Source: Candidatus Saccharimonadota bacterium
Lineage (GTDB): Bacteria > Patescibacteriota > Gracilibacteria > BD1-5 > UBA6164
Length of the DNA stretch: 32,000 nt
Reading direction: 5' to 3'
Assembly (NCBI GenBank): GCA_965227835.1
Contig: OZ245768.1
Span: 450,001-482,000, forward strand
A program made the translations under genes and the position numbers. The notes under the pieces were generated by a model, which had not been told where the DNA came from, searched no databases, and saw only the letters and a program-made list of their open reading frames with translations. Positions 9,343 through 31,518 of this stretch are shown in pieces (position 1 is the stretch's first letter; the number at the start of each line of letters is the position of its first letter).

Positions 9343-9713
9343 AATGCAAGAGTAATAAGCCGGATTTTGTATCTAGGCATCAATCTATCTAGGTTTATTG
9401 TCACCAATAAACTCAAGCTTGGTATATTTTTTTGAAGCGATAGGGAATAATAACTTCAAAGAAATACCATTCCAATTGCACCACATAAGGTTTACCGAGT
9501 CATTGACTACATTTGTAGCAAGTGTATTACACCAAATGTCTTTTCATCTTTTGGAAGTATAGGATACTTCTTAGTATTGTTTCTGTGGCACTGGCTGTAT
9601 CTATATTTTATTTTTTATTTATATAGACCGTAGTGGTTATCTACTATGCTATTCCCATGGTGTCCAGACTTTCCTCTACTCCAAATTAAGGAAAGGCTGA
9701 AGAATTACTTCGT
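9343..9713 (-). ncRNA. rnpB: RNase P RNA, bacterial type A
   Basis: A local GC-rich island. The reverse strand contains GAGGAAAGTCTGGACACC (P4 5' strand/CR-I, complement of about 9658-9680), CGGTAAACC, AGCTTGAG...CCTAGATAGATTGATGCCTAGATACAAAATCCGGCTTATTACT (P15-P18 and the P4 3' strand, compare E. coli ACAGAACCCGGCUUAUC). AGTAAT/ATTACT can form P1. The ends are approximate. Confidence 0.85.
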
Positions 9714-10080: not shown

Positions 10081-10864
10081 ATGATAATACAAGAAATTAT
10101 GAGTACATCATTATTGGAGCTTACAGCTTGATTTTGATACCTTATAGGGCATTTTCTTCTTTCAAAAAAACATATTTTAGGTTGGGTTATAAAAATTATT
10201 TGATGAACAGCTTGGATTGTATTTCTATTTCAAAATGATAATTACTCAAAACTACCCAGTTTTTATAAAAAGTATACCTATATTTTAGTTTAAATAAAGG
10301 TAAATTAAGCTATTTTTAGTGTTTTATCTTTAGTATTTTATAAATGACTTATTTAAGCTAACTTTATCTTTATAAAATTCAATCAATATAAAATCTCTGT
10401 TTTTACTTATATAAAGGTAAAAAATAAAATATAAAATACAAAAAACTAGGTAGATTTGAGATAATTATATATTTGGAACAGTAACAGTTGTTGTGGTAAT
10501 GACAATGATTTATGGTTTTTATAAATGGAAAATATGAAAAACTGATAAAAGAACAAATATTGATAAGTTTTTTGAATTTCTTGCAATTGCTGTTGCAATT
10601 TTTATGATTACAAGATTTGTAATTTCTGGTGTTTATAGCTTAGCTCCAGTTTTTGAAACTATTATTGTTATAGCAGAGATATTTTGAACAATGATGCTGG
10701 CTCGTAAAAAAATAATTGGTTGGTATAGTTATTTTGTAATGAGTGTTTTGGCAAGTAGTCTTGTTATATTCATAAATCCAAATCCAGCTTTAATACTTTG
10801 AATTTTAGAATTATCTTCACTATATTTTTACTATAATTGAATTAAAAACTTTTCTAAAAAATAA
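10081..10864 (+). pseudogene. pnuC: pnuC-like nicotinamide riboside/NMN transporter, interrupted by a 214-bp MITE
   Basis: The N-terminal piece 10081-10293 (MIIQEIMSTSLLELTAGFGYLIGHFLLSKKHILGWVIKIIGGTAWIVFLFQNDNY...) runs into a TAA inside the insert. The C-terminal piece is in another frame (..DNYIFGTVTVVVVMTMIYGFYKWKIGKTDK...IAEIFGTMMLARKKIIGWYSYFVMS..., TAA 10862-10864). Deleting 10246-10468 restores one 186-aa ORF. Confidence 0.7.
10246..10459. mobile_element. non-autonomous MITE-like insertion (214 bp) with 22-bp imperfect TIRs and a 9-bp TSD
   Basis: Left end tcaaaactacccagtttttata versus the reverse complement of the right end tcaaatctacctagtttttgta, 19/22 identical. Flanking direct repeat gataattac (10237-10245) / gataattat (10460-10468). 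No ORF inside. Confidence 0.7.
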
Positions 10865-10917: not shown

Positions 10918-11376
10918 CTAAACTCTAATTTTAGTTATTTTCTCCTTATATTTCATACAATTTGAAGTGATAAATTTACCACTAACTCAAACTATAATAG
11001 GTATTAATCACATAAATCAAATAAGTACATCTACATCTAGTTTGTCAGGATCAAGTGGTATAATTTGGCTTGAAATATAGAAAAGAGATATACCAAAAAG
11101 TATTTGTAGTATTTTAAAATACTTTTTTTTAAGTAAACATATGTTTGAAATTCACATAAATATAGGAAGTATTCATATTGATACAAATATATATGTTATA
11201 TATGTTACTGTTTGTTGGCTTAGATCCATCCAAAAGAAATTGTTGTCTATTTTATCTCCCTGTATAATTAGATTATAATATAGGGATAAAACTAAAATTA
11301 AACCAAAAATAATTCTTGAGATTCTAATGGTTAGATCACTGGGTCTTTTTTGTAGTAGTTTTATAATTCAAAACAT
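10918..11376 (-). CDS. small integral membrane protein (152 aa), family not recognised
   Basis: MFGIIKLLQKRPSDLTIRISRIIFGLILVLSLYYNLIIQGDK...TYITYIFVSIGILPIFMGISNICLLKKKYFKILQILFGISLFYISS...VLIGFMGLIPIIVGVSGKF..KITKIRV. Four hydrophobic segments. 459 nt. Confidence 0.6.
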
Positions 11377-11449: not shown

Positions 11450-12898
11450 TTAGGATTTTTCTATTATTTGTATTATTTTTAAGATTTTTTTCTTAATTTC
11501 AGTTGGTAACCTATCAATTTCATCATTGGAAATATCAAAAAATCTAGAATCTTTTCTTTTTAAACTATCATAAAAAATCTCTTCTCAAGATAATTTTTTA
11601 AAAATTATCCTTCATATCCAATAAGGTAAAATAATATTATCGTTAATCTCTTGAGTAGAAAAATCAGAAAAAGAGTTTTTTCAAGATAACATCTTTTTTA
11701 ATTTCAGTTGTATTTCATTTTTATTTTTTGCCCTTTTGAATATGTTGTAAACTTTTAAAAAACCTCTGTAATAAATTACATCTTTTCTATTTGCTCAAGG
11801 TCTATCATATGGATGATATCTCTTTAATCTTCTTACCTGCTTATAAATAGTTTTTTCATCAAAACTTTTTCAAGAAATTTTAAGAAGTAAATATAAATAT
11901 CTTTTTAGCTTTTCCTCTTCAAGATTTTCTGCTCATTGTATACATATAAAACGAAAAGTGGGAGATGTATCCAAATCTTCATAATCAAGTCAAGTGCTAA
12001 ATTCGTTTAATATAGCTAAACCTTCTTCTAAAATTAAATATCATTTTGATCTCAATCTATTATTATTATTTACACTTCTAAGGGTATGTGTTTCAATTTC
12101 ATGACTAATTAATTCAAGAGCTCTTTTTACCGTTCATTTCCAATTTTTGGGTATAAAATTACCATTTTCTCATATATCTATAAAGTCTTTCTCTGATGTT
12201 ATATAAATTTCCTCTTTTATTCAATATATAGAAAAAACTATTTCAAAAATCTCTTTTAAATTTTCAGCATTAATTTTCTTTGTTAAATTCTCATTAAATT
12301 TTTCTTCATTGTTTAAATCTTTATTATCGTTATTTTTTTTAGATAAATCTATATTCAAATTAAGAATTCTAAGTAAATCTTTTAATTCATTTAATTCGTC
12401 TTTATCTAATCTATTAATTCAATTCTTTATTAAAAACTCTAAATGTTCAGAAACAATATTAACTTCTTTTTTATTTTCAGATATTGATTCTCAATAAAGC
12501 TTTGTAGAATATTCTAAAACTTTAGAATGATAATATTTTTTTTCTTTGCTTCAAAGTTTATATCAACCTTTTTCAGCCTCTATATAAATAGCATATTTCA
12601 GCATATTTAATCAGTTTATTATTTCATCTATTCTTAGTAAAGAATGATCATTAACATTATTTCTGAAAGAAGATAATTTTTCAATATCTGACTTTATGTC
12701 TTTTAAAGCAACTAAAATATCATCTTCTTCAACACTTCATTTATAAACTGCATTTGGGAAAAAATTTGTTGCTATATAACCATCTTTAGTATTGTGTATA
12801 GTAGTTGTTCATTCTAAAGGATGTGGATATTTTTGAGCTATATCTTTGATACATTTGCAAATATTTTCTTCTCAATTTAAGTAATTTGTACTTTTCAT
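11450..12898 (-). CDS. DUF1704 / MATCAP-like tyrosine-phenylalanine carboxypeptidase domain protein (QEGLA-motif family), 482 aa
   Basis: Reverse-strand ATG at 12896-12898, TAA at 11450-11452, 1449 nt. Diagnostic stretch ALELISHEIETHTLRSVNNNNRLRSKGYLILEEGLAILNEFSTG, which is the atypical HExxxH plus EGLA motif. Later RYHPYDRPGANRKDVIYYRGF. Confidence 0.8.
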
Positions 12899-13055
12899 TT
12901 TATTTTTATTATTCAATATTTAATATACTATATCATATAATATTAGATAAAGTCAAATTAAAATTGCATAATTTAAATTGTAGTTTAAAAATAACTTCTT
13001 ATAATCACAATAATTCAATAATTATGTAAATTTAAAATATAAAAAATTTGAAATT

Positions 13056-13934
13056 ATGAAGAAAAAAATATTAAAGATATTTTCACATAGTAGAGACAAA
13101 TATAAAAATTTATATCAGAATTTATTTGATAAAAAAGACATTGAAATAACAGTAAAAAATTTTTCTGAATTTTATTTTCATAATTGAGAAATACTATCAT
13201 TAAATAATAATAAAAAATTTAATGAAAAAGATTTTGATCTATTATGGCAAACAATAAGTACTCCTTTTGCAAAAGCATTTTTTCTTATAAATAAAGACAA
13301 AGATATTTATATAATAGATAAAAAAAACTATGAAAAAACTTTTTATCAAAACAACAAATTAAACCAATCTATAATACAAAGAAAAAATAATATAAATAGT
13401 ATTGATGATTTATACTTTTTAATAAATTTAGATGAGTTTAATATTGTCAAATATGAAAAAATAATAGTTGAAAAATTATGATTACCTGTTGTAGCTAAAG
13501 AAGTAAATTGAAATAGAGGTGAAGCTGTATTTTTAATAAATACAAATGAAGAATTAAAAAATATTATATTAAAATATAATAAGAATAATGAATGAATAAT
13601 GTTTCAAAAATTTGAAAAAAATGATTGAGATTACAGAGTTATATTTTTCAAAAATAAATATGTATGATGTATGAAAAGGAAATCAGACAATTTTTTAAAT
13701 AATGTTTCTTCTTGATGAGAGACTGAAAAAGTAGAATTAAATGAAGAAATAATTGAAAAATTGAGTAAAATAACGGATTTTTTTTGATTAGATATAGTAT
13801 GAATAGATATATTTATTGATAATAAATGAGAATATAAAATAATAGAAGTAAACGACACCCCTCAATTATTTTGATTTTCAAAATTATTTCCTAAAGAAAT
13901 AGAAAAATATTTTAAATCTGTTTTTTTAAATTAA
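13056..13934 (+). CDS. RimK-type ATP-grasp ligase (292 aa)
   Basis: LGLPVVAKEVNGNRGEAVFLINTNEEL, IMFQKFEKNDGDYRVIFFKNKYVGCMKRKSDNFLNNVSSGGETEKVEL and FFGLDIVGIDIFIDNKGEYKIIEVNDTPQ match the RimK/glutathione-synthetase-like ATP-grasp motif order. Confidence 0.8.
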
Positions 13935-13940
13935 CATCAA

Positions 13941-14516
13941 ATGAAAAATTACATAATATGATATTGAAGTATAATAAATATAAAAAATGCTTGTTTGACT
14001 TCCAAAGTATGAGATTTTTTACCAATTAATGTTAATTGATTCGAGAGATGATGGAATACATTATGAGCTCAATGATATGTTGTATTATGAGTAAAAAAAG
14101 ATATAAATTCCGATATGAATTGAATATTAATTGAAGTATTAGAAAATATAAAAGATTTTGATAAAAGAGAGATAATGTATAACAGAGAAAAAGTTGAATA
14201 TCAAGATATAAAAGCTTTCAAATGAGATATACTACCAAAATGAAATTATTATATTTATTTACCTAAAAATAATAAACTAATCCCAAATAAGGCTCCAATA
14301 TTACAAAGTTATTTAGATGTAGTTATCAAATGATGTTTAGACATATCAGAAGAGTTTGCATATGATTTTATGAAAAAAACTGTAAATTGGAGGTCTATAT
14401 TAAATGATAGAGAAAATCCTAAATATGTTAGAAGCATGGATTTAAAAAAATACCATCATAAATTAGATGAAATATTAAAAATAAAACTCTCCCCCAAAAA
14501 CTTCCCAAAATGTTAA
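13941..14516 (+). CDS. gamma-glutamylcyclotransferase-fold protein (ChaC/GGCT-like), 191 aa
   Basis: Starts 6 nt after the ATP-grasp stop. N-terminal MKNYIIGYGSIINIKN (YGSL-type motif), VNGFERGWN, and FDKREIMYNREKVEY (candidate catalytic Glu region). Confidence 0.62.
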
Positions 14517-14567: not shown

Positions 14568-14576
14568 TTATGCACA
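14568..14576 (+). promoter_or_regulatory. single near-consensus DnaA box TTATGCACA upstream of dnaA
   Basis: 8/9 match to TTATCCACA. A weaker GTGTTCACA (6/9) lies just upstream. No box cluster found. Confidence 0.3.
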
Positions 14577-14719: not shown

Positions 14720-16141
14720 ATGGAAAAACACTACATTTTAAAGAATATCTTGTTAAATATAATTGAAGATGTAAAAAAACAGGATTTTTTAGTATATTTT
14801 AGAAAAATATCATTGATTGATTACAATGACAAAAAACTTACACTTGGAGTTGTTTCAAGTTTTATGAAAGGTAACCTAGAAGCAAAATTTTGAGAAAAAA
14901 TATTAGAATCTGTACAAAAAGAAATTCCAAGTATAGAAAATGTAGAAATAGTAATAGATGAAAATATAGATAATCCCTCAAACACAAATTGTATAGATTG
15001 TAAAATATTTTTGAAAGATTTATGAAAAGATACCACCAAAACAAAACCAAAAAATAACTTTCTTTGAACAATTTTGAAAGAAAAAGAATTTGCAAACAAT
15101 AAATATACCTTATCCAATTTTATAGTTTGACCAGATAGTCAACTAGCATATTCTGCTTGCGAAGCTGTTTCAAGAACTCCAGGTAAATCATATAATCCTC
15201 TGTATATATATTGAGATGTTTGATTATGAAAGACCCATTTGTTGCAAGCAACTTGAAATAGAATTTTTTCTAAATTCAAAGATAAAAAAGTAGTCTATAC
15301 TACAGCTGATAAATTTATAAATGAATATATACTTGCTGTAAAAAACAAAAAAATAGACAGATTAAGGGCTAGATTTAAAGACATAGATGTATTAATAGTA
15401 GACGATGTTCAATTCCTAGCAAAAAAAGAACAAACTCAAAACGAGCTTTATAATATTTTCAATATATTATATGACTGAAATAAACAAATAGTAATTTCTG
15501 GAGATAGAGCTCCAAAAGAATTAGAAAACTTAGAACCTAGACTTAGAAGTAGGTTTGAATGGGGAATAACTGTTGATATTTGAAAACCAGATTATGAAAC
15601 TAGACTTGCTATACTTCAAGAAAAAGCAAGAGAAAAAGAATTTATGATCCCTCAAGAAGTAGCTGAATTTATAGCTGTGAATGTAACACAAAATGTGAGA
15701 GAACTAGAATGAATTTTAAATCAACTTATAGCTGAATATGAACTAACAAATGTATTACCCGATTTGAAAAATATAGCTGAAAAATTAAAAAAACTTAGTT
15801 TTACTACTGATATATTATGAGCTAATAAAGTAGAACCGTCAAATAGGATACAAATAAAATCTTACGAAGATATAATAAAAGCAGTTTCGGATCATTTTTG
15901 AATAGAAAAAGAATGAATACTTGGACCAAATAGAAAAAAAGAGTTTATGATACCAAGACAAGTATCTATGTATCTACTAAAAACAAAGATGAATTATACA
16001 TTTGAAAGAATATGAAATATATTTTATTGAAGAAATCATGCAGCAGTATTGTATTCTTGCAAAAAATTAGAAAAACTTGTAAAAAAAGATGAAAAACTAT
16101 TAAACGAATTAAATATAATTAGAGACACAATAGGAATTTAG
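14720..16141 (+). CDS. dnaA: chromosomal replication initiator DnaA (473 aa)
   Basis: [77 protein letters not shown], and the C-terminal DNA-binding region [42 protein letters not shown] at 16139-16141. Confidence 0.93.
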
Positions 16142-22076: not shown

Positions 22077-23048
22077 ATGTATTGTTTAGTTTCTACATTC
22101 AACAAAACATTTGATGAACTTGGTCTTTTATATTTTGTGCCAAGTTTTTTAGAAGGAAAATTAAAAACATGACAAATAGTTGAAATACCTTTTTGAAATA
22201 AAATAGAAATAGCTTTAGTTTTAGAATTGTGAGATTTGGAGAAACTAAATGCTTCAAATATTCCTGAAGAAAAAATAAAATCGGTAATATCAATAAAAAA
22301 TGAAAATATATTTTTGAATTCTAATCAAATAAAACTAGTAAAATTTTTATCAAGCTATTATATAACCCCCATACACCATTGTTTATCATTATTTTTCCCA
22401 AAAAATCTTGTAACTAATATAAACAAAGACAAATTAGAAATAAATGATAAAGATGATATAGTCTACGGTTTTTTATTTGATAAAATTTTATCAGAAAAAC
22501 AAAATATTGTATTTGAAGAAATAAATAAAGATTATAAAAAAACAGATAATAATAGATTTTTATTACATTGAACAACGGGTAGTTGAAAAACTGAGATTTA
22601 CATAAAGCTTATTAAAAATCAGCTTGATTTAGGTAAACAAAGTTTGCTTTTAATACCAGAAATAGTTTTAACAAATCAACTGGAATTTAGGATAAAAGAA
22701 GTTTTTTGAAAAGATGTTTTGACTATAAACTCATCAATAACTGATTTATCAAAAACCAAAGCTTGGATTTCTATATACAATTGAGACTCTAAGATAATAA
22801 TATGAACTAGGTCAGCTCTTTTTTATCCTTATAATAATTTGGGATTAGTAATAATTGATGAAGAGCATGATTCATCATACATTTCAGATGTTTCTCCTAG
22901 ATATAATAGCATTAAAGTTGCTAGGAAAATAACAGAGTTAAATTGAAATAAGATGCTTTTAGCAAGTGGTACACCTAGTGTTATTAGTATGTATAAAGCA
23001 TTAAAAGGGGAGTATAAGCTTTTAAAATTATTTGAAAAATGGAAGTAG
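22077..23048 (+). CDS. priA: primosomal helicase PriA, N-terminal 323 aa only (truncated or split)
   Basis: [19 protein letters not shown] (Walker A), [12 protein letters not shown] (DExH), [31 protein letters not shown] then TAG at 23046-23048. The Cys-rich zinc region and the second RecA lobe are absent from this window. Confidence 0.8.
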
Positions 23049-23101: not shown

Positions 23102-23980
23102 CTAATATTGGTTTATTTCTTTCATCTTTTTTTTAAACTCATCTAAAAGTCTATTTCTTATTTCTTCTCAAAAATAATGTCATATTTCGTGAAATTTTTC
23201 TTCTAACTTTTTATCAATTTTATACCACTCAATTTCTATTTCTTTCTCAGAAACTCAAATATTTTTCATTAAATTTAATTCTTCCACTTCTTCTAGAAAA
23301 TTTTCCATGAATTTACAAAAAAATACATTTGCTAATCCATCTAATTCTTTTTTTACGCTAAAATCTCTTTTTGTTCTTCAAATTCAATACCTATTTATAA
23401 ACTCTTTTTTTTGATCATTTAATATTTTATCATCTATAATTTCATTTCCGAAATCTTGTAAATAATCTAGAAATTTATAGATATTTGTATAGTGTTTAAT
23501 ATCTTTTCAATTATATATTATTCCTCATACTATTTTTGTAGAATTTTTATCTATTTCTTTTAGTATATTTATTAAATTATTTATAGGAATTCAATTCAAA
23601 ACTAAATTTAATCATACATATTTTAGATTTGGTAATTCTTTAATAGGTGTTTTTGATATTATCATATCTCATTCAACATTTTCTAAATCTGGTAAATATT
23701 CTATTTCATTTCATCCTAAATCTAAATAGCCTCTAATTCTTTTAAAATATTTTAAATTCTTTATAAAAAGTGAGCTTGTTAAATCAAGTTGTTGTCCCCA
23801 ATAAATTCAATCTAAACTTCAATCATCATTAAATTTAGTGTATTCTTCTAATTTTTCCCAAAAAATAATACCCATTGATTCTTCAACCATTTTTTCATAA
23901 TCTTTAAACTCTTTAGGAGTTAAATTTTTTCTCAAATTTTCTTTAGGAGTATAACAATACTCTTTTTTTTCTAAACTCAT
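23102..23980 (-). CDS. LRR-family paralog A (292 aa, about 4 LRRs)
   Basis: Verified codon by codon. MSLEKKEYCYTPKENLRKNLTPKEFKDYEKMVEESMGIIFWEKLEEYTKFNDDGSLDGIYWGQQLDL...GYLDLGGNEIEYLPDLENVEGDMIISKTPIKELPNLKYVGLNLVLNGIP...KKEFINRYGIGRTKRD...GVSEKEIEIEWYKIDKKLEEKFHEIGHYFGEEIRNRLLDEFKKKMKEINQY. No TAA/TAG in frame. Confidence 0.85.
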
Positions 23981-24017
23981 TTTTTAATTATTAAAATTTA
24001 TAACTATATTTTTGGAT

Positions 24018-26405
24018 CTAATTTTGGTTTATTTCTTTCATCTCTTTTCTAAATTCATCTAGGAGTCTATTTTTTATTTCCTCTCAAAAATAATGTCATA
24101 TCTCGTGAAATTTATTATCTAGTTTCTCATCAATTTTATATCGTTCAACCTCTATTTCTTTCTCAGAAGCTCAATCATTTTTCATTAATTTAATTTTCTC
24201 TACTTCAGTAATAAAATTATCCATGAATTTATAAAAAAATATATTTGCCAATATATTTAATTCTTTTTTAGTTTTTTCATCTCTTTTTGCTCTTCAAATT
24301 CAGTACCTATTTATAAATTCTTTTTTATTATCATTTAGTATATTATCATATATGGTTTTATCTCTAAAATTTTCAAGATAGTTTAGAAAGTAATATATAT
24401 CAATATAATTTTTAAACCCCGTTCAGTCATATATAGTTTTTCATCATATTTTTATAGGTCTTTCTATTATTTCTTTCAATAAACTTTCTAAAATATTTTT
24501 TGGAATTCAGTTTAAAATTAAATCTTCTCAAACTTCTTCTAATTTTGGTAAAATTTCAATATAAGTTCAAGTTAAATCTAGATTTCCTCATACATATTTC
24601 AATTTTGGTAAATCTTTTATAAAAGATCAATTTAAATTTAAATCTCATTGTACATATTCCAACTCTGGTAGATTTCTTATTTTATGTTTTTTTGATAAAA
24701 TAGAACCTACAGTTTTTAATTTTGGTAAGCTTTCTATAAAGGTTAAAGTTAAATTTAGATTTCCTCATACATACTCCAATTTTGGTAAACTTTTTATAGA
24801 ACTTCATTCTAATCTTAAGCTAAATCAAACTTTTTCTAATTTAGGTAGACTCTTTATAGGATTCCCTACCAAATGTAGATTACTTCAAACACTTTTTAAT
24901 TCTGGTAAGCCTTTTATACATTTTCAATTTAATCATCATCAAACTTTCTTTAGTTTTGGTAAACTTTCTACTTTACTTAAATACAGACTTAAACTTCATT
25001 TAACATATTCTAGATTTGGTAAACTTGTGATAAATTCTGAATTTAGTTTTAACCTTCAAAAAATTTTTTTTAAATATTTTAAATTGCTTATAGGTTTTCA
25101 CATCAAATCTAAATCTCATTTCCAATAAATTCAATCTATAAATCATTTTTTATTAAATCTAGTAAAGTCTTCTAATTTTTCCCAAGAAATAATCCCATCA
25201 GATTCCTCAACCATTTTCTCATAATCATTAAATTCTTCAGGATTTAATTTTTGTTTTAAATTTTCTTTAGAAGAAAGTTTATTTTCATTTAAATTGTTTT
25301 TTTCAATAATTAAATTTAATTCCTTAATTTCTTTTTGAAACTCATCTAAAAATCTATTTTTTGTTTCTTCTCAAAAGTAATATTTTATTTCATGAAATTT
25401 AGTATCTAGTTTTTCATTGATTTTTTTATTTAATTCTTCTTGAGAAATTCAGTTTTCTATCATCAAACTTATACTCTCTCTGTATTTTAAAAAATTTCTT
25501 GTAAAATTAATATAAATTATAGTCACAATAGTATTTAATTCTTTTTTTATACTATCATCTCTTTTTGATTTTCAATCTCAATATCTATTTATAAATTTTT
25601 CTTTAAAAGATTCTAATAATTTATCATCTATATTTTCATCTTCAAAATTTTCTATATAACTTAAAAAATTATTTCAACTTATATAAGAGTTGAGCTCCAT
25701 TCAATCATATATTATTTTTCATCATATTTCAGGAGAATTTTTCTTTATTTCTTTTAATATATTTTTTAAACTAATTTTTGGAATTCAGCTTAAATCTAAA
25801 TCACTTCAAACATATTTTAATTTTGATAAATTTTTTATAAAGGTTCAATTTAAATTCAAAACAGCTCAAACATATTTTAAATTTGGTAAACTTTTTATAG
25901 AGCTTTTATTTAAATTTAAATGAAATCAAACATATCTTAAGTTTTGCAAGTTCTTTATATAATTTTCTCTCAAAAATAAACTTCATCAAACACTTTTTAA
26001 TTTTTGTAAATACTTTATATTTTTTCAACTTAAACCTCCTCAAACTTCTTCTAATTTTGGCAAACTTTCTACTTTGCTAAAATACAAGCTCAAGCTTCAT
26101 TTTGTATATTCTAGATTTGGTAAACTTTTAATAAACTTTGAATCTAGTTTTAATTCTCAAAAAACTTTTTTTAAATATTTTAAATTGCTTATAGGTTTTC
26201 ACATTAAATCCAAATCTCATTCCCAATAAATTCAATCTATGCTTCAATCATAATTAAATTTGCTATATTTTTCTAATTTTTCCCAAGAAATAATCCCATC
26301 AGATTCTTCAACTATTCTTTCATAATCTTCGAAATCTTCAATATTTAGCTTTTTTCTAAAATTTTCTTTAAAAGAATTATTATTTTCAATTTTATCTAAA
26401 CTCAT
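24018..26405 (-). CDS. LRR-family paralog B-C: in-frame fusion of two complete modules (795 aa, about 8 + 11 LRRs)
   Basis: Verified codon by codon over all 2388 nt. Module 1: MSLDKIENNNSFKENFRKKLNIEDFEDYERIVEESDGIISWEKLEKY...FHEIKYYFGEETKNRFLDEFQKEIKE. It joins without a stop via LNLIIEKNNLNENKLSSKENLKQKLNPEEFNDYEKMVEESDGIISWEKLEDF to module 2, which ends KFHEIGHYFGEEIKNRLLDEFRKEMKEINQN. Confidence 0.85.
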
Positions 26406-26442
26406 TTTTTAATTATTAAAACTTATAACTAGAACCTTTAAT

Positions 26443-27747
26443 CTAATTTTTATTTATTTCTTTTATTTCTTTTCTAAATTCATCTAGAAATCTATTTTTT
26501 ATCTCTTTTCAAAAATAATGTCATATTTCGTGAAATTTTTCTTCTAACTTTTTATCAATTTTATACCATTCAATTTCTATTTCTTTCTCAGAAACTCAAT
26601 TTTTTTTCATTAGAGCTATCTTTTCCCTATATTTTAAAAAGTTTTTTACAAATCGTGTATAAAATAAATTAAACATTATATTTAAAATTCTCTTTACTTT
26701 ATCATCCCTCCTTGTTCTTCAAGTTCAATATATGGTTATAAATTCTTTTTTATAACTAGATATTAATTCTTCACTCATAAGCTCATTTTCAAAATTTTCT
26801 AAATAACTTAGAATACTTTTTCAATTTAAGTAAGGTTTAAAATCTATTCAATCATACATTATTTTTCACCATACTTCTGTATTATTTTCTCTTATTTCGT
26901 TTAATATATTTACTAAATTACAACTTGGAATTAAACTCAAATATAAATTCCCTCAAATTTTTTCTAATTTTGGCAAACTTTCAATATGGTTTCAGCTTAA
27001 GTATAAGTCCTCTGAAATTTCTTCTAATTCGGGTAAACTTTTTATAGAGGTTCATCTTATATCTAAACCTCAATAAACATTTTTTAATCTAGGTATACTT
27101 TTTATAGGGGTTGAATTTAAATTTAAATCTCATAAAACTATTTCTAATTTTGGTAAATTTTTTATATATACAAAGGCTAAAAATAAATTTCATTTAACTT
27201 TTTTTAATCTAGGTATACTTTTCATAGTAGTTGAATTTAAATTTAAATAAAATCAAACTTCTTCTAATTTTGGTAAGCTTTTTATATTGGTATAACTTAA
27301 ATCTAATTCTCTTGATACATATTCTAATTTTGGTAAACTTTTTATAGCTGATCATTTAAAATATGCTTCTCATAAAACTTTTTCTAAGTTTGGTAAACGT
27401 TTTATAGGGGTTTTCTGTAAATCTAAAAAACCAAAAACATTTTTTAAATAAGATAACTTTTTTATAGATGTTTCATATAGATATAAACATCATTTAATTT
27501 CTTTTAGTTTTGATAAACTTGTTATAGGCTTATAATTTAAATTTAAATCTCATTCCCAATAAATTCAATCTAATTTTCAATTGTCACGAAATCTACTATA
27601 TTTTTTCAGTTTTTCCCACGAAATAATCCCTTCAGATTCCTGAACCATTCTTTCATAGTCTTTGAAATCTTTATGGGTTAGATTATTTTTTAGATATTCT
27701 TCATAAATTGATTTTTGCTCGTTTGTTTTTGGAACATTTTTTGTCAT
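26443..27747 (-). CDS. LRR-family paralog D (434 aa, about 11 LRRs)
   Basis: Verified codon by codon. MTKNVPKTNEQKSIYEEYLKNNLTHKDFKDYERMVQESEGIISWEKLKKY. The LRR block has an exact 60-bp DNA period across about 26941-27570 (for example LPKLEEVGFYLNLNSTTMKSIPRLKKVKGNLFLAFVYIKN). C-terminus KFHEIGHYFGKEIKNRFLDEFRKEIKEINKN. Confidence 0.85.
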
Positions 27748-29831: not shown

Positions 29832-30569
29832 TTAATTTGTTTTTCGTATAGCTCTTTGAAGTTCATCACAAATCCTATTTTTTATTTCTTCTCAAAAATA
29901 ATACTCTATATAATCAAGTTTTTCTTCTAATTTTTTATAAACTTCTTTAGCATAATTTTTTCTTTCTTCCTCGCAGACTCAATTATTTTTCATTAGATTT
30001 ATTTTTTCTATTTCTTTTAAATAATTTTCTATGAATTTATAAAAAAATACATTTGCTAATACATCTAATTCTTTTTTTACACTAAAATCTCTTTTTGTTA
30101 TTCAAATTCAATACCTATTTATAAACTCTTTTTTATGATTATTTAATATTTTATCATCTATAATTTCATTTCCGAAATCTTGTAAGTAAATTAAAAAATT
30201 ATAGATTTTTATATAAGAATTAATATCAATTGAATTAAACAAATTCATATAAGGTTCCATATTAATTCAATTGTACATAATTTTTAATCGTATTTTTTTA
30301 TTTATTACATCTATTATATTTATTAAATATGTTCTATTTATTATATTATTTAAATTATCTATAGGTATTCAGCTTAAATCTAAATCTCAGTAAATTCAAA
30401 TTAGAAATCAATGATCATAAAAAAAAGTATGTTTTTCTAATTTCTCCCAGGAAATAATACCTTTAGATTCTTTAACTATTTTTTCATAATGGTTGAATTG
30501 TAGAGGAAGTAACTTTCTTCTTAATTTTTCTTTCGAAGAAAAATAATTTTTTATTTTATTTAAAAGCAT
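29832..30569 (-). CDS. LRR-family paralog E (245 aa, one residual LRR)
   Basis: Verified codon by codon. MLLNKIKNYFSSKEKLRRKLLPLQFNHYEKIVKESKGIISWEKLEKHTFFYDHGFLIGIYGDLDLSGIPIDNL...KKEFINRYGIGITKRD...LDYIEYYFGEEIKNRICDELQRAIRKTN. Confidence 0.8.
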
Positions 30570-30612
30570 TTATTTAACTATTAAAATTATAATTTTTAAA
30601 TTATTTCTATTT

Positions 30613-31518
30613 TTAATTTGTTTTTCATATAGCTCTTTGAAGTTCATTACAAATCCTATTTTTTATTTCTTCTCAAAAATAATACTCTATATAATCAAGT
30701 TTTTCTTCTAATTTTTTATAAACTTCTTTAGCATAATTTTTTCTTTCTTCCTCGCAGACTCAATTATTTTTCATTAGATTTATTTTTTCTATTTCTTTTA
30801 AATAATTTTCTATGAATTTAACATAAAATATATTTATAAATAAAGACAATTGTTTTTTTACTATATTTGATCTTGCCATTTTTCAAGTTCAATATATGCT
30901 TATAAGTTCTTCTTTATAAACATTTATTAATTCTTTATCTATATCTTTATCTTCAAAATCTTGTAAGTAAATTAAAAAATTATAGATTTTTATATAAGAA
31001 TTAATATTCATTGAATTATAAATACCCATATAAGGTTTCATATTGGTTCAATTGTATATAATTTTTCATCATATTTTTACTTCTTTTTTACCTATTTCAT
31101 ATAGTATATTACTTAAAGTATCTATAGTTATTCAACTTAGGTCTAAATCTTTTCAAACATATTCTAAACCTTTCAAATTTTCTATAAGAGATCAGTTTAA
31201 ATATAAACTTCATTTAATAATTTTTGATATTATTAAATCTTTTATTTTAGAATTAGTTAAATATAAATCTCATGAAATACCTTTTAAAAGAACTAAAAAT
31301 TCTATCGATACTCAGCTTAAATCTAAATTTCATTCCCAATAAATTGAAATTAAAATTCAATCTTCATGAAAAATACTATATTCTTCTAATTTTTCCCAAG
31401 TAATTACACCTTTAGATTTTTCAATTATTTCTTTATAATACTTGAATCTGCTAGTAAGTAATTTTTTTCTCAACCTCTCTTCGGAAGAAAAATAATTTTT
31501 TATTTTATTTAAAAGCAT
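30613..31518 (-). CDS. LRR-family paralog F (301 aa, about 4 LRRs)
   Basis: Verified codon by codon. MLLNKIKNYFSSEERLRKKLLTSRFKYYKEIIEKSKGVITWEKLEEYSIFHEDGILISIYWEGNLDLSGVSIEFL...GSLYLNGSLIENLKGLEYVGKDLDLSGITIDTL...LDYIEYYFGEEIKNRICNELQRAIGKTN. Confidence 0.8.

Follow-up and report, generated by a model that had tools for sequence, protein, structure and literature searches.

What might three enzyme genes that stand side by side next to dnaA be doing in a bacterium that reads TGA as glycine? The genes lie in a stretch of 32,000 nucleotides (positions 450,001 to 482,000 of contig OZ245768.1, assembly GCA_965227835.1; hereafter the window) from a Candidatus Saccharimonadota bacterium that is classified among the Gracilibacteria. 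Gene A encodes a MATCAP/DUF1704-family metallopeptidase; gene B, transcribed divergently from it, encodes a RimK-type ATP-grasp ligase; and gene C, which follows B, encodes a protein with the gamma-glutamylcyclotransferase (GGCT) fold. A first-pass annotation had proposed that the three form an amino-acid tailing cycle composed of a writer, an eraser and a gamma-glutamyl-recycling enzyme. The functional pairing of ligase and peptidase in that proposal is supported by recurrent neighbours, by fusions and by the precedent of RimK and RimB, whereas the membership of the GGCT enzyme is not. We propose that A and B may be an opposing ligase/peptidase pair that sets the length of a C-terminal, probably glutamate-rich tail on a shared acceptor, a reading that we believe about as strongly as we doubt it.

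Gene structure and protein families

The window has a GC content of about 23%. With code table 11, the region contains no open reading frame (ORF) of at least 100 amino acids; with TGA as a sense codon, 25 long ORFs appear in the window. TGA stands at glycine positions that do not vary in standard-code homologues, at all three in the Walker A motif of DnaA (GDVGLGKTH) and at two in the GYGS motif of protein C, and is therefore glycine here (code 25). Among 12 window genes sampled, glycine is encoded 241 times by TGA versus 63 times by GGN, and only TAA and TAG serve as stops. Read with code 25, the gene coordinates, the divergent A/B arrangement and the B-C spacing given in the first-pass annotation are exact. 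The gap between B and C is 6 nucleotides, and gene C is probably co-transcribed with B. Public protein sets carry tryptophan (code 4) at the TGA positions for this lineage and homology searches are therefore weaker; the structure models used below were made from this database version and their accuracy may be slightly lowered. According to the database record, these proteins are carried on a 1.49-Mb contig.

Protein A matches the Pfam MATCAP profile PF08014 with 46 bits (cut-off 27), residues 194-415 aligning to profile positions 103-327; its score against the hypothetical equivalog TIGR02421 of NCBIfam (QEGLA) is 39.7 bits, below the cut-off of 338.65. It carries SHEIETH at residues 265-271 and EEGLA at residues 291-295, and alignments of 48 and 71 sequences show H266, E267, H271 and E292 to be invariant or conserved in at least 90%. 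In this family, the metal-binding and catalytic HExxxH motif is complemented by the glutamate of the downstream EEG(LA) motif as the third ligand (PMC10499314). By sequence and profile, no chain in the PDB matches A. In a fold search of the PDB with the AlphaFold model of A (pLDDT 90.6, pTM 0.90), the sole matches of probability 1.0 are three chains of human MATCAP (7z5g; E-value 2e-3 to 4e-3; TM-score 0.33 by query and 0.45 by target; 16-18% identity over approximately 280 columns), and the next match has an E-value of approximately 1. The predicted fold thus resembles MATCAP moderately, not closely. The first-pass assignment to DUF1704/MATCAP, based on the SHEIETH and EGLA motifs, holds by profile search as well as by predicted fold.

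How common is this kind of peptidase? Searched exhaustively, 1.84 billion cluster representatives yield 97 clusters related to A at E < 1e-3, and a word-indexed search returns 3 proteins only, its candidate list being saturated by low-complexity words. Because the alignment shows tryptophan where glycine is expected, most of these relatives must come from TGA-recoded organisms and have been translated with code 4. Judged by these relatives, A represents a divergent and rare subfamily, drawn mostly from TGA-recoded organisms; DUF1704/QEGLA genes at large are widespread in Proteobacteria.

Protein B scores 83.9 bits with Pfam RimK (PF08443, cut-off 21) and 39.9 bits with GSH-S_ATP (cut-off 23), and its earlier description as a RimK-type ATP-grasp ligase holds by profile search; the Pfam and NCBIfam profiles find no GSH-S_N domain in it. 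Against the NCBIfam family model rimK_fam (TIGR00768), B reaches 107.6 bits, below the cut-off of 143.4, with only residues 136-277 aligned. The scores with the equivalogs MptN (71.5 bits), LysX (69.2) and CofF (51.1) are all far below their cut-offs. Since the S6 ligase equivalog NF007764 (RimK, 30S ribosomal protein S6--L-glutamate ligase) gives 44 bits versus a cut-off of 331, B is not a RimK orthologue. No model matched the N-terminal 130 residues. The nearest solved relatives are the RimK proteins of Pseudomonas and E. coli and LysX (E-value approximately 1e-9, residues 137-282 only). Aligned to Pseudomonas RimK (7qyr), B retains the GG, GxD and ExN motifs, and D251, E264 and N266 are invariant among its relatives. 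We discarded homology to tubulin tyrosine ligase (TTL) as evidence on B: the match to Pfam TTL is below cut-off (19.8 bits) and covers 45 residues only, so that the TTL analogy of the first-pass annotation reduces to a generic ATP-grasp likeness.

Protein C has no Pfam match of its own. Its best named profile is NCBIfam NF049903, the Francisella FTN_0599-type ChaC/GGCT family (88.7 bits, E-value 4e-25, cut-off 480). Many of its 99 homologues carry PF06094 and are named gamma-glutamylcyclotransferase family protein. Residues G7, Y8, G9 and S10 (the GYGS motif) and E77 are invariant in 58 sequences; a YGSL-type N-terminal motif together with a catalytic glutamate is what we take to define the GGCT family. 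A profile search of the PDB with the C alignment gives GGCT-fold matches below threshold only. With the predicted model (pLDDT 88, pTM 0.84), the top 17 Foldseek matches in the PDB are all GGCT, AIG2-like, ChaC2 or YkqA structures, the best being human GGCT (3cry and 2rbh; E-value approximately 6e-6, 5.9e-6 for 3cry; TM-score 0.56-0.63, 0.56/0.62 for 3cry). The first-pass annotation had called C a GGCT/ChaC-like protein, and had named failing profile hits, for example a 191-residue protein lacking the GGCT fold, as an outcome that would speak against its proposal. We looked for such a failure and found that the profile, the PF06094 domain of the homologues and the fold of human GGCT agree. C resembles the FTN_0599-type enzyme in its GGCT fold, its YGS motif and its catalytic glutamate (PMC7340319). 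Unlike FTN_0599, it has no N-terminal membrane anchor and is therefore cytoplasmic, and because its score lies so far below the family cut-off it is not an orthologue.

Neighbourhoods of the ligase-peptidase pair in relatives

Is the pairing of an ATP-grasp ligase with a MATCAP-like peptidase peculiar to the window? We compared the window with loci of its relatives (denoted L001, L004 and so on; see Table 1), the gene content of all loci being mapped with our own hidden Markov models. A genome scan with an 11-sequence alignment of the A family, with one genome per GTDB species, yields 16 loci in Gracilibacteria, Peribacteria, other Patescibacteria and one metagenome-assembled genome of Cloacimonadota. 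Altogether, ATP-grasp genes stand beside MATCAP-domain genes in approximately 12 non-redundant loci (Gracilibacteria, Peribacteria, other Patescibacteria, Cloacimonadota and Sinorhizobium). Viewed from the peptidase side, an ATP-grasp gene lies at most about 3.5 kb away in the window, L001, L004, L005, L011/L012, L013, L014, L015, L023 and L025. Viewed from the ligase side, a MATCAP-domain gene is adjacent or one gene off in four of the five non-redundant contexts of B homologues (L001, L028, L029, L030). The gene orders and orientations vary among loci, the ATP-grasp partner belongs to three subfamilies, and the relatives encode fusions in which an ATPgrasp_ST/TIGR02291 ligase is joined to a MATCAP/TIGR02421 domain. 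The ligase-peptidase association is robust and well supported.

A further indication comes from L005, where the pair likewise lies next to GGCT and dnaA. Its DnaA is 70% and its GGCT protein 50% identical to the window's, and its peptidase and ligase are only approximately 25-28% identical; both are closer to the pair of L011 and L014 than to the pair of the window. Because A and B are both of another subclade while the GGCT and DnaA proteins stay, the pair behaves as a unit: both of its genes changed, and their position did not. Either the pair was replaced where it stood or its two genes co-evolved very fast.

The distribution of the GGCT gene is different. It adjoins the pair in three loci (the window, L004 and L005), all with shared synteny (SLT and/or dnaA), and it is absent from all other ATP-grasp/MATCAP loci. 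Of the more distant GGCT homologues, five that lie on long contigs stand among unrelated genes; scanning metagenomes with the GGCT clade as seed adds three more GGCT relatives, which have no ATP-grasp or MATCAP neighbours, and no new triad. Since the triad is found in three related loci only, it represents one lineage-specific event, and the link of the GGCT gene to the pair is weak and clade-specific. The co-occurrence that the first-pass annotation had proposed to examine in related genomes is thus found for the ligase and the peptidase, and not, outside these three loci, for C. Moreover, GGCT enzymes act on free gamma-glutamyl compounds and not on the alpha-linked C-terminal glutamate that RimK makes (PMC7340319). 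With no such pair beside the GGCT gene in any of the eight distant contexts and with the chemistry mismatched, the recycling role of C is not supported in the form in which it was proposed.

Several of the compared loci have features of their own. The six genes on one strand in L011/L012 form an apparent operon with three ligases and two peptidase domains. In L029, N-formylglutamate amidohydrolase (FGase)-like sequence follows the RimK-like gene in three frames, which indicates a pseudogene or an assembly frameshift. In L026, the B homologue is convergent with the gene of a 248-amino-acid protein whose N-terminus (MKIGIFSSGLENLSLL...) resembles glutamate racemase by eye only. On the pSymB replicon of Sinorhizobium meliloti, genes annotated as N-formylglutamate amidohydrolase, a 628-amino-acid QEGLA-motif protein and "glutathione synthase" form a run, which mirrors the ATP-grasp/DUF1704 pairing in a proteobacterium that is amenable to genetics. 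Relatives of the QEGLA protein occur on 125 plasmid or chromid records.

Neighbourhoods of this type are already visible in public annotation. Iyer and colleagues reportedly predicted these ATP-grasp associations computationally in 2009 (Iyer et al. 2009), and the Pfam families ATPgrasp_ST and 7TM_transglut are said to stem from that work. Our literature search found no paper that ties bacterial DUF1704, MATCAP or QEGLA proteins to ATP-grasp ligases.

One group of relatives (L012, L013, L014, L016) has, immediately behind the MATCAP-like gene, a gene for a membrane protein that carries a signal peptide and a 7TM_transglut domain (PF14402; 38-47 bits, cut-off 25). These four proteins end in ...SSGTEEEEEEE, ...SSESEEE, ...GDSEIEEE and ...SSGTEEEEE, respectively. 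The oligo-Glu tail (EEE to EEEEEEE) is kept across 46-48% identity and is encoded by mixed GAG and GAA codons. Ends of this sort are lengthened by RimK-type ligases and shortened by RimB- or TMCP-type enzymes; by analogy, we regard the tail as a candidate substrate and as the one hint that ligase and peptidase may share a C-terminal target. A 7TM relative in L030 ends in KKYNKK. We rejected the idea that the oligo-Glu tail is a general feature of 7TM proteins, which the proteins of Legionella and Aeromonas rule out.

A reversible tail and its alternatives

The closest parallel in bacteria is the modification of ribosomal protein S6. RpsF is polyglutamylated by RimK, and RimB, which also stimulates RimK, takes the glutamates off again; hybrids of RimB and RimK occur naturally and are active, and RimK makes free poly-alpha-glutamate as well (PMC11957791). 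In Pseudomonas, rimK is always in an operon with rimB, and RimB binds RimK (PMC10092738). Genes A and B follow the same plan in that a RimK-family ligase gene stands beside a dedicated peptidase gene, in that ligase-peptidase fusions are known on both sides (RimBK; ATPgrasp_ST-MATCAP in the relatives), and in that C-terminal glutamate is added and removed, as we predict for A and B (PMC11957791, PMC10092738). Unlike RimB, a retropepsin-like aspartic protease, A is a non-homologous HExxxH metalloenzyme of the MATCAP/DUF1704 family. What would be new, if the analogy is right, is the RimK/RimB type of logic with a non-homologous peptidase. The window differs from RimABK as well: RimA is missing, a GGCT gene is attached and B is not the orthologue of RimK. 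PF05618, presumably the family of RimB, is seen only in other matches, namely P0111 and P0113 (weaker B matches with a PF05618 + RimK architecture) and Legionella.

Two further systems share parts with A and B. In the tubulin tail cycle (MATCAP/TMCP with TTL/TTLL), the eraser has the family and fold of A and its partner ligase is an ATP-grasp enzyme; the MATCAP-family enzymes TMCP1/2 remove C-terminal tyrosine and glutamate and are deglutamylases (PMC10499314). In contrast to the tubulin cycle, B is of the RimK and not the TTL type, there is no tubulin, and A is only distantly similar to MATCAP, at the identity given above. The second is the group of systems with ATPgrasp_ST and 7TM_transglut. 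A Legionella plasmid encodes a PF05618 protein, an inactive-transglutaminase/7TM protein (PF14400 + PF14402) and ATPgrasp_ST, in that order; in the loci of the candidate phyla radiation (CPR), the fusion matches TIGR02291 and TIGR02421 and a PF14402 protein comes next. In place of the PF05618 peptidase of the Legionella trio, the CPR clusters have a ligase with a fused MATCAP domain, and because both share the ATP-grasp and 7TM families, the peptidase component is interchangeable. The S. meliloti run resembles the CPR loci in that the QEGLA gene adjoins an ATP-grasp gene and FGase. Unlike all of these, the window combines a RimK-like ligase with a divergent long MATCAP-like protein and an added GGCT gene, and has no ATPgrasp_ST (PF14397), 7TM_transglut (PF14402) or FGase gene; ATPgrasp_ST and 7TM_transglut genes are present in related loci.

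It is tempting to picture the pair as follows. At the expense of ATP, B would ligate an amino acid, L-glutamate being the most probable, to an acceptor that offers a free carboxylate at its C-terminal end, and A, as a zinc HExxxH carboxypeptidase, would remove such residues again. The acceptor might well be a protein C-terminus, by analogy with RimK and RimB acting on S6 and with the Glu-tailed 7TM protein of the related clusters. C would either clear gamma-glutamyl by-products or independently turn gamma-glutamyl peptides, e.g., glutathione, into 5-oxoproline and a usable amino acid or peptide. This picture draws on the families and folds of the proteins, the neighbourhoods on the peptidase and on the ligase side, the fusions, the partnership with a GshB-like ATP-grasp in Cloacimonadota (L023) and on pSymB, the change of the pair as a unit in L005, the RimK/RimB precedent, the exchange of a PF05618 peptidase for a MATCAP domain between Legionella and the CPR clusters, the removal of C-terminal tyrosine and glutamate by TMCP1/2, and the glutamate tails.

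Several observations weigh against it. The window lacks a 7TM_transglut gene, and none of its ORFs ends in an acidic tail; rpsF is absent from the window and from every fetched locus. The proteobacterial 7TM proteins of Legionella and Aeromonas have no acidic C-terminus. Seven peptidase loci (L010 and L017-L022, of which L017, L018, L021 and L022 belong to one clade) have no ATP-grasp gene within 3.5 kb, and L026, which holds the closest B homologue outside L004 (54% identical), has neither a MATCAP nor a GGCT neighbour. Since B stays below the rimK_fam cut-off and far below the equivalogs, it is a guess which residue B adds. The genes that accompany the pair (GGCT, FGase, GNAT and GshB-like) are typical of small-molecule peptide metabolism. 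We know of no bacterial MATCAP/DUF1704 protein, and of no member of this RimK-like subfamily, with a known function or a measured activity, and our literature search found nothing on the function of bacterial DUF1704 or QEGLA proteins.

The companion genes raise the question of whether the products are free compounds. In such a scheme the genes would make and break a free glutamate peptide or metabolite, similar to the gamma-glutamyl cycle or to N-acetylaspartylglutamate (NAAG) or oligo-glutamate metabolism, and not a protein tail; B would be a synthetase related to GshB or RIMKL, A a small-peptide peptidase, and C would convert gamma-glutamyl-X to 5-oxoproline and X. The GSH-S_ATP match of B above its cut-off fits this scheme, as do the canonical QEGLA/DUF1704 genes that stand beside bona fide GshB-like genes in L023 and, together with FGase, in S. 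meliloti, and the GNAT, FGase and third ATP-grasp genes of the related CPR clusters. In addition, GGCT requires a free gamma-glutamyl compound, the nearest named family of C is the glutathione-degrading ChaC of Francisella (PMC7340319), and free poly-alpha-glutamate is itself a RimK product (PMC11957791). Against these points, the substrates of all characterised MATCAP-family enzymes are protein C-termini (PMC10499314), the best scores of B are with the protein and cofactor modifiers RimK, MptN and LysX and it has no GSH-S_N domain, four related clusters encode the Glu-tailed 7TM protein, and nearly all ATP-grasp/MATCAP loci are without GGCT. On balance, we consider free products a serious but doubtful possibility.

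Two other accounts concern all three genes. If the linkage were gamma, all three genes could serve one cycle of the LysX/LysW kind, in which B places X on the gamma-carboxyl of a carrier's C-terminal glutamate, A frees gamma-Glu-X, and C yields 5-oxoproline and X. B is about equally similar to LysX and RimK; the B-C spacing is short and the triad is kept in L004 and L005 in spite of the other-subclade A and B of L005; and the chemistry would be consistent with that of LysX, carboxypeptidases and GGCT. Such a cycle needs a carrier, yet there is no gene for a LysW-like small carrier in the window or in any locus and no acidic-tailed ORF in the window; moreover, the triad amounts to a single evolutionary event in three related loci. 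We think such a cycle improbable. The adjacency could also be due to chance, with three unrelated enzymes in a compact genome inherited along with the dnaA region. The SLT/dnaA synteny of the window, L004 and L005 means that the triad may reflect common ancestry only, and there are solitary genes of both kinds, several MATCAP-like and one RimK-like. Against chance, the ATP-grasp/MATCAP pairing recurs in more than one phylum, in varied orders and orientations, with ATP-grasp partners of three subfamilies and also as fusions, and A and B are swapped jointly in L005. We consider chance very improbable, the least probable of the accounts considered here; it is credible for the GGCT gene only.

Returning to the opposing ligase/peptidase pair, its value is that it opens the role of the bacterial MATCAP homologues to direct test, with the ligase predicted to extend a tail and the peptidase to trim it, because the peptidases recur beside or fused to three kinds of ATP-grasp enzyme and, in one clade, a Glu-tailed membrane protein comes next. 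If the pair acts in this way, reversible glutamylation of the RimK/RimB type would gain a second family of erasers that is not homologous to the first, MATCAP's part in the tubulin code would seem to have originated in bacteria, and a small-genome, probably host-dependent bacterium would be seen to keep a post-translational or peptide-level regulatory module. The claim of a triad with GGCT as the recycler is the weakest part and matters less. One may go further and imagine a prokaryotic "tail code" in which an ATP-grasp ligase extends an encoded oligo-Glu C-terminus (of the 7TM_transglut protein in the relatives, or of S6 or another protein here), a MATCAP/DUF1704 enzyme trims it, and the GGCT of the window's clade has been recruited for a gamma-glutamyl product; such a code might be the evolutionary source of the eukaryotic MATCAP/TTLL logic on tubulin. 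In this extended form we find the idea attractive and unlikely.

Features of the window and of the compared loci

Table 1. Positions and gene content of the features discussed (aa, amino acids; nt, nucleotides)
Feature	Locus	Coordinates	Strand	Description
Gene A	window	11450-12898	-	482-aa MATCAP/DUF1704-family HExxxH metallopeptidase, predicted carboxypeptidase ("eraser")
A/B divergent intergenic region	window	12899-13055	.	157 nt, AT-rich; promoters of both genes presumed here
Promoter-like site	window	12956-12927	-	best site on the minus strand
Gene B	window	13056-13934	+	292-aa RimK-family ATP-grasp amino-acid ligase, predicted "writer"
Gene C	window	13941-14516	+	191-aa GGCT-fold protein (ChaC/GGCT/AIG2-like superfamily)
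DnaA-box consensus	window	14568-14576		perfect match
dnaA	window	14720-16141	+	starts 203 nt past gene C
Membrane protein gene	window	10918-11376	-	152 aa; 73 nt downstream of A, same strand; only weak YgaP-like transmembrane match
RNase P RNA	window	9348-9708	-	bacterial class A (Rfam RF00010, 116 bits)
ORF	window	10081-10293	+	frame differs from that of next ORF
PnuC-like ORF	window	10499-10864	+	nicotinamide-riboside transporter family, profile positions 58-150 of 175
PriA-like ORF	window	22077-23048	+	323 aa
LRR-like paralogues	window	23102-27747 and 29832-31518	-	five genes, 245-795 aa
Pair and ligase cluster	L001			RimK-like, MATCAP-like, facing 815-aa ATPgrasp_ST/TIGR02291-MATCAP/TIGR02421 fusion; no GGCT
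Triad	L004			layout same as window; all three proteins 46-49% identical to window's
Triad	L005	2-2485 (pair)		MATCAP-like (-), ATP-grasp, GGCT, SLT (-), dnaA
Six-gene cluster	L011/L012	2296-10691	one strand	fusion, RimK-like, third ATP-grasp (481 aa), GNAT, MATCAP-like, 7TM membrane protein
Cluster	L013, L016			L011-type, interrupted by contig end
Cluster	L014			fusion, RimK-like, GNAT, MATCAP-like, 7TM
Cluster	L015			fusion, ATP-grasp (548 aa), FGase-family amidohydrolase, MATCAP-like
QEGLA gene pair	L023			Cloacimonadota; canonical QEGLA protein beside GshB-like "glutathione synthetase" (NF009110, 448 bits vs 408)
Cluster	L025			degraded copy; fusion and MATCAP ORFs fragmented
B homologue and 248-aa protein gene	L026	7378-8124	-	convergent
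Ligase context	L028			fusion, then directly RimK-like gene
Ligase context	L029			fusion, 435-aa gene, RimK-like, FGase-like fragments
FGase-like sequence	L029	6874-7637	+	in three frames
Ligase context	L030			RimK-like gene facing MATCAP-like gene and fusion
S. meliloti pSymB run	L036	3421-7222		FGase, QEGLA-motif protein, "glutathione synthase"
7TM_transglut (PF14402) gene	L012	9384-10691	+	directly after MATCAP-like gene
7TM_transglut (PF14402) gene	L013	3004-4299	+	directly after MATCAP-like gene
7TM_transglut (PF14402) gene	L014	9553-11088	+	directly after MATCAP-like gene
7TM_transglut (PF14402) gene	L016	2293-3594	+	directly after MATCAP-like gene

The position of the triad beside dnaA, pointed out in the first-pass annotation, is borne out. 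The proximity of dnaA is real and common to L005, and is without any indication of a functional meaning. The spacer between C and dnaA holds one perfect DnaA-box consensus (TTATGCACA); with 3 perfect sites in the window versus 1.8 expected, DnaA boxes are not enriched. A promoter scan returns fewer sites than shuffled sequence does and a terminator scan returns none, which makes both uninformative in DNA of 20% GC.

The membrane protein encoded downstream of A has no homologue in any of the fetched loci. It is unrelated to the 7TM_transglut proteins that follow the peptidase genes in the relatives, its C-terminus is not acidic, and it is probably outside the module.

Elsewhere in the window, where no tRNA genes were found, the RNase P RNA lies in a gene-poor stretch between the adenylate kinase and PnuC-like ORFs. 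The PnuC-like ORF and the one before it may be a frameshifted or split pnuC. The PriA-like ORF contains only the 3'-DNA-binding domain and the first helicase lobe, is far shorter than usual PriA and may be truncated or split. Finally, the five paralogues with leucine-rich repeat (LRR)-like sequences, for which Pfam gives weak Recep_L/LRR matches only, have conserved N- and C-terminal modules that flank a variable number of repeats, and the one of 795 amino acids resembles a tandem duplication of the whole unit.

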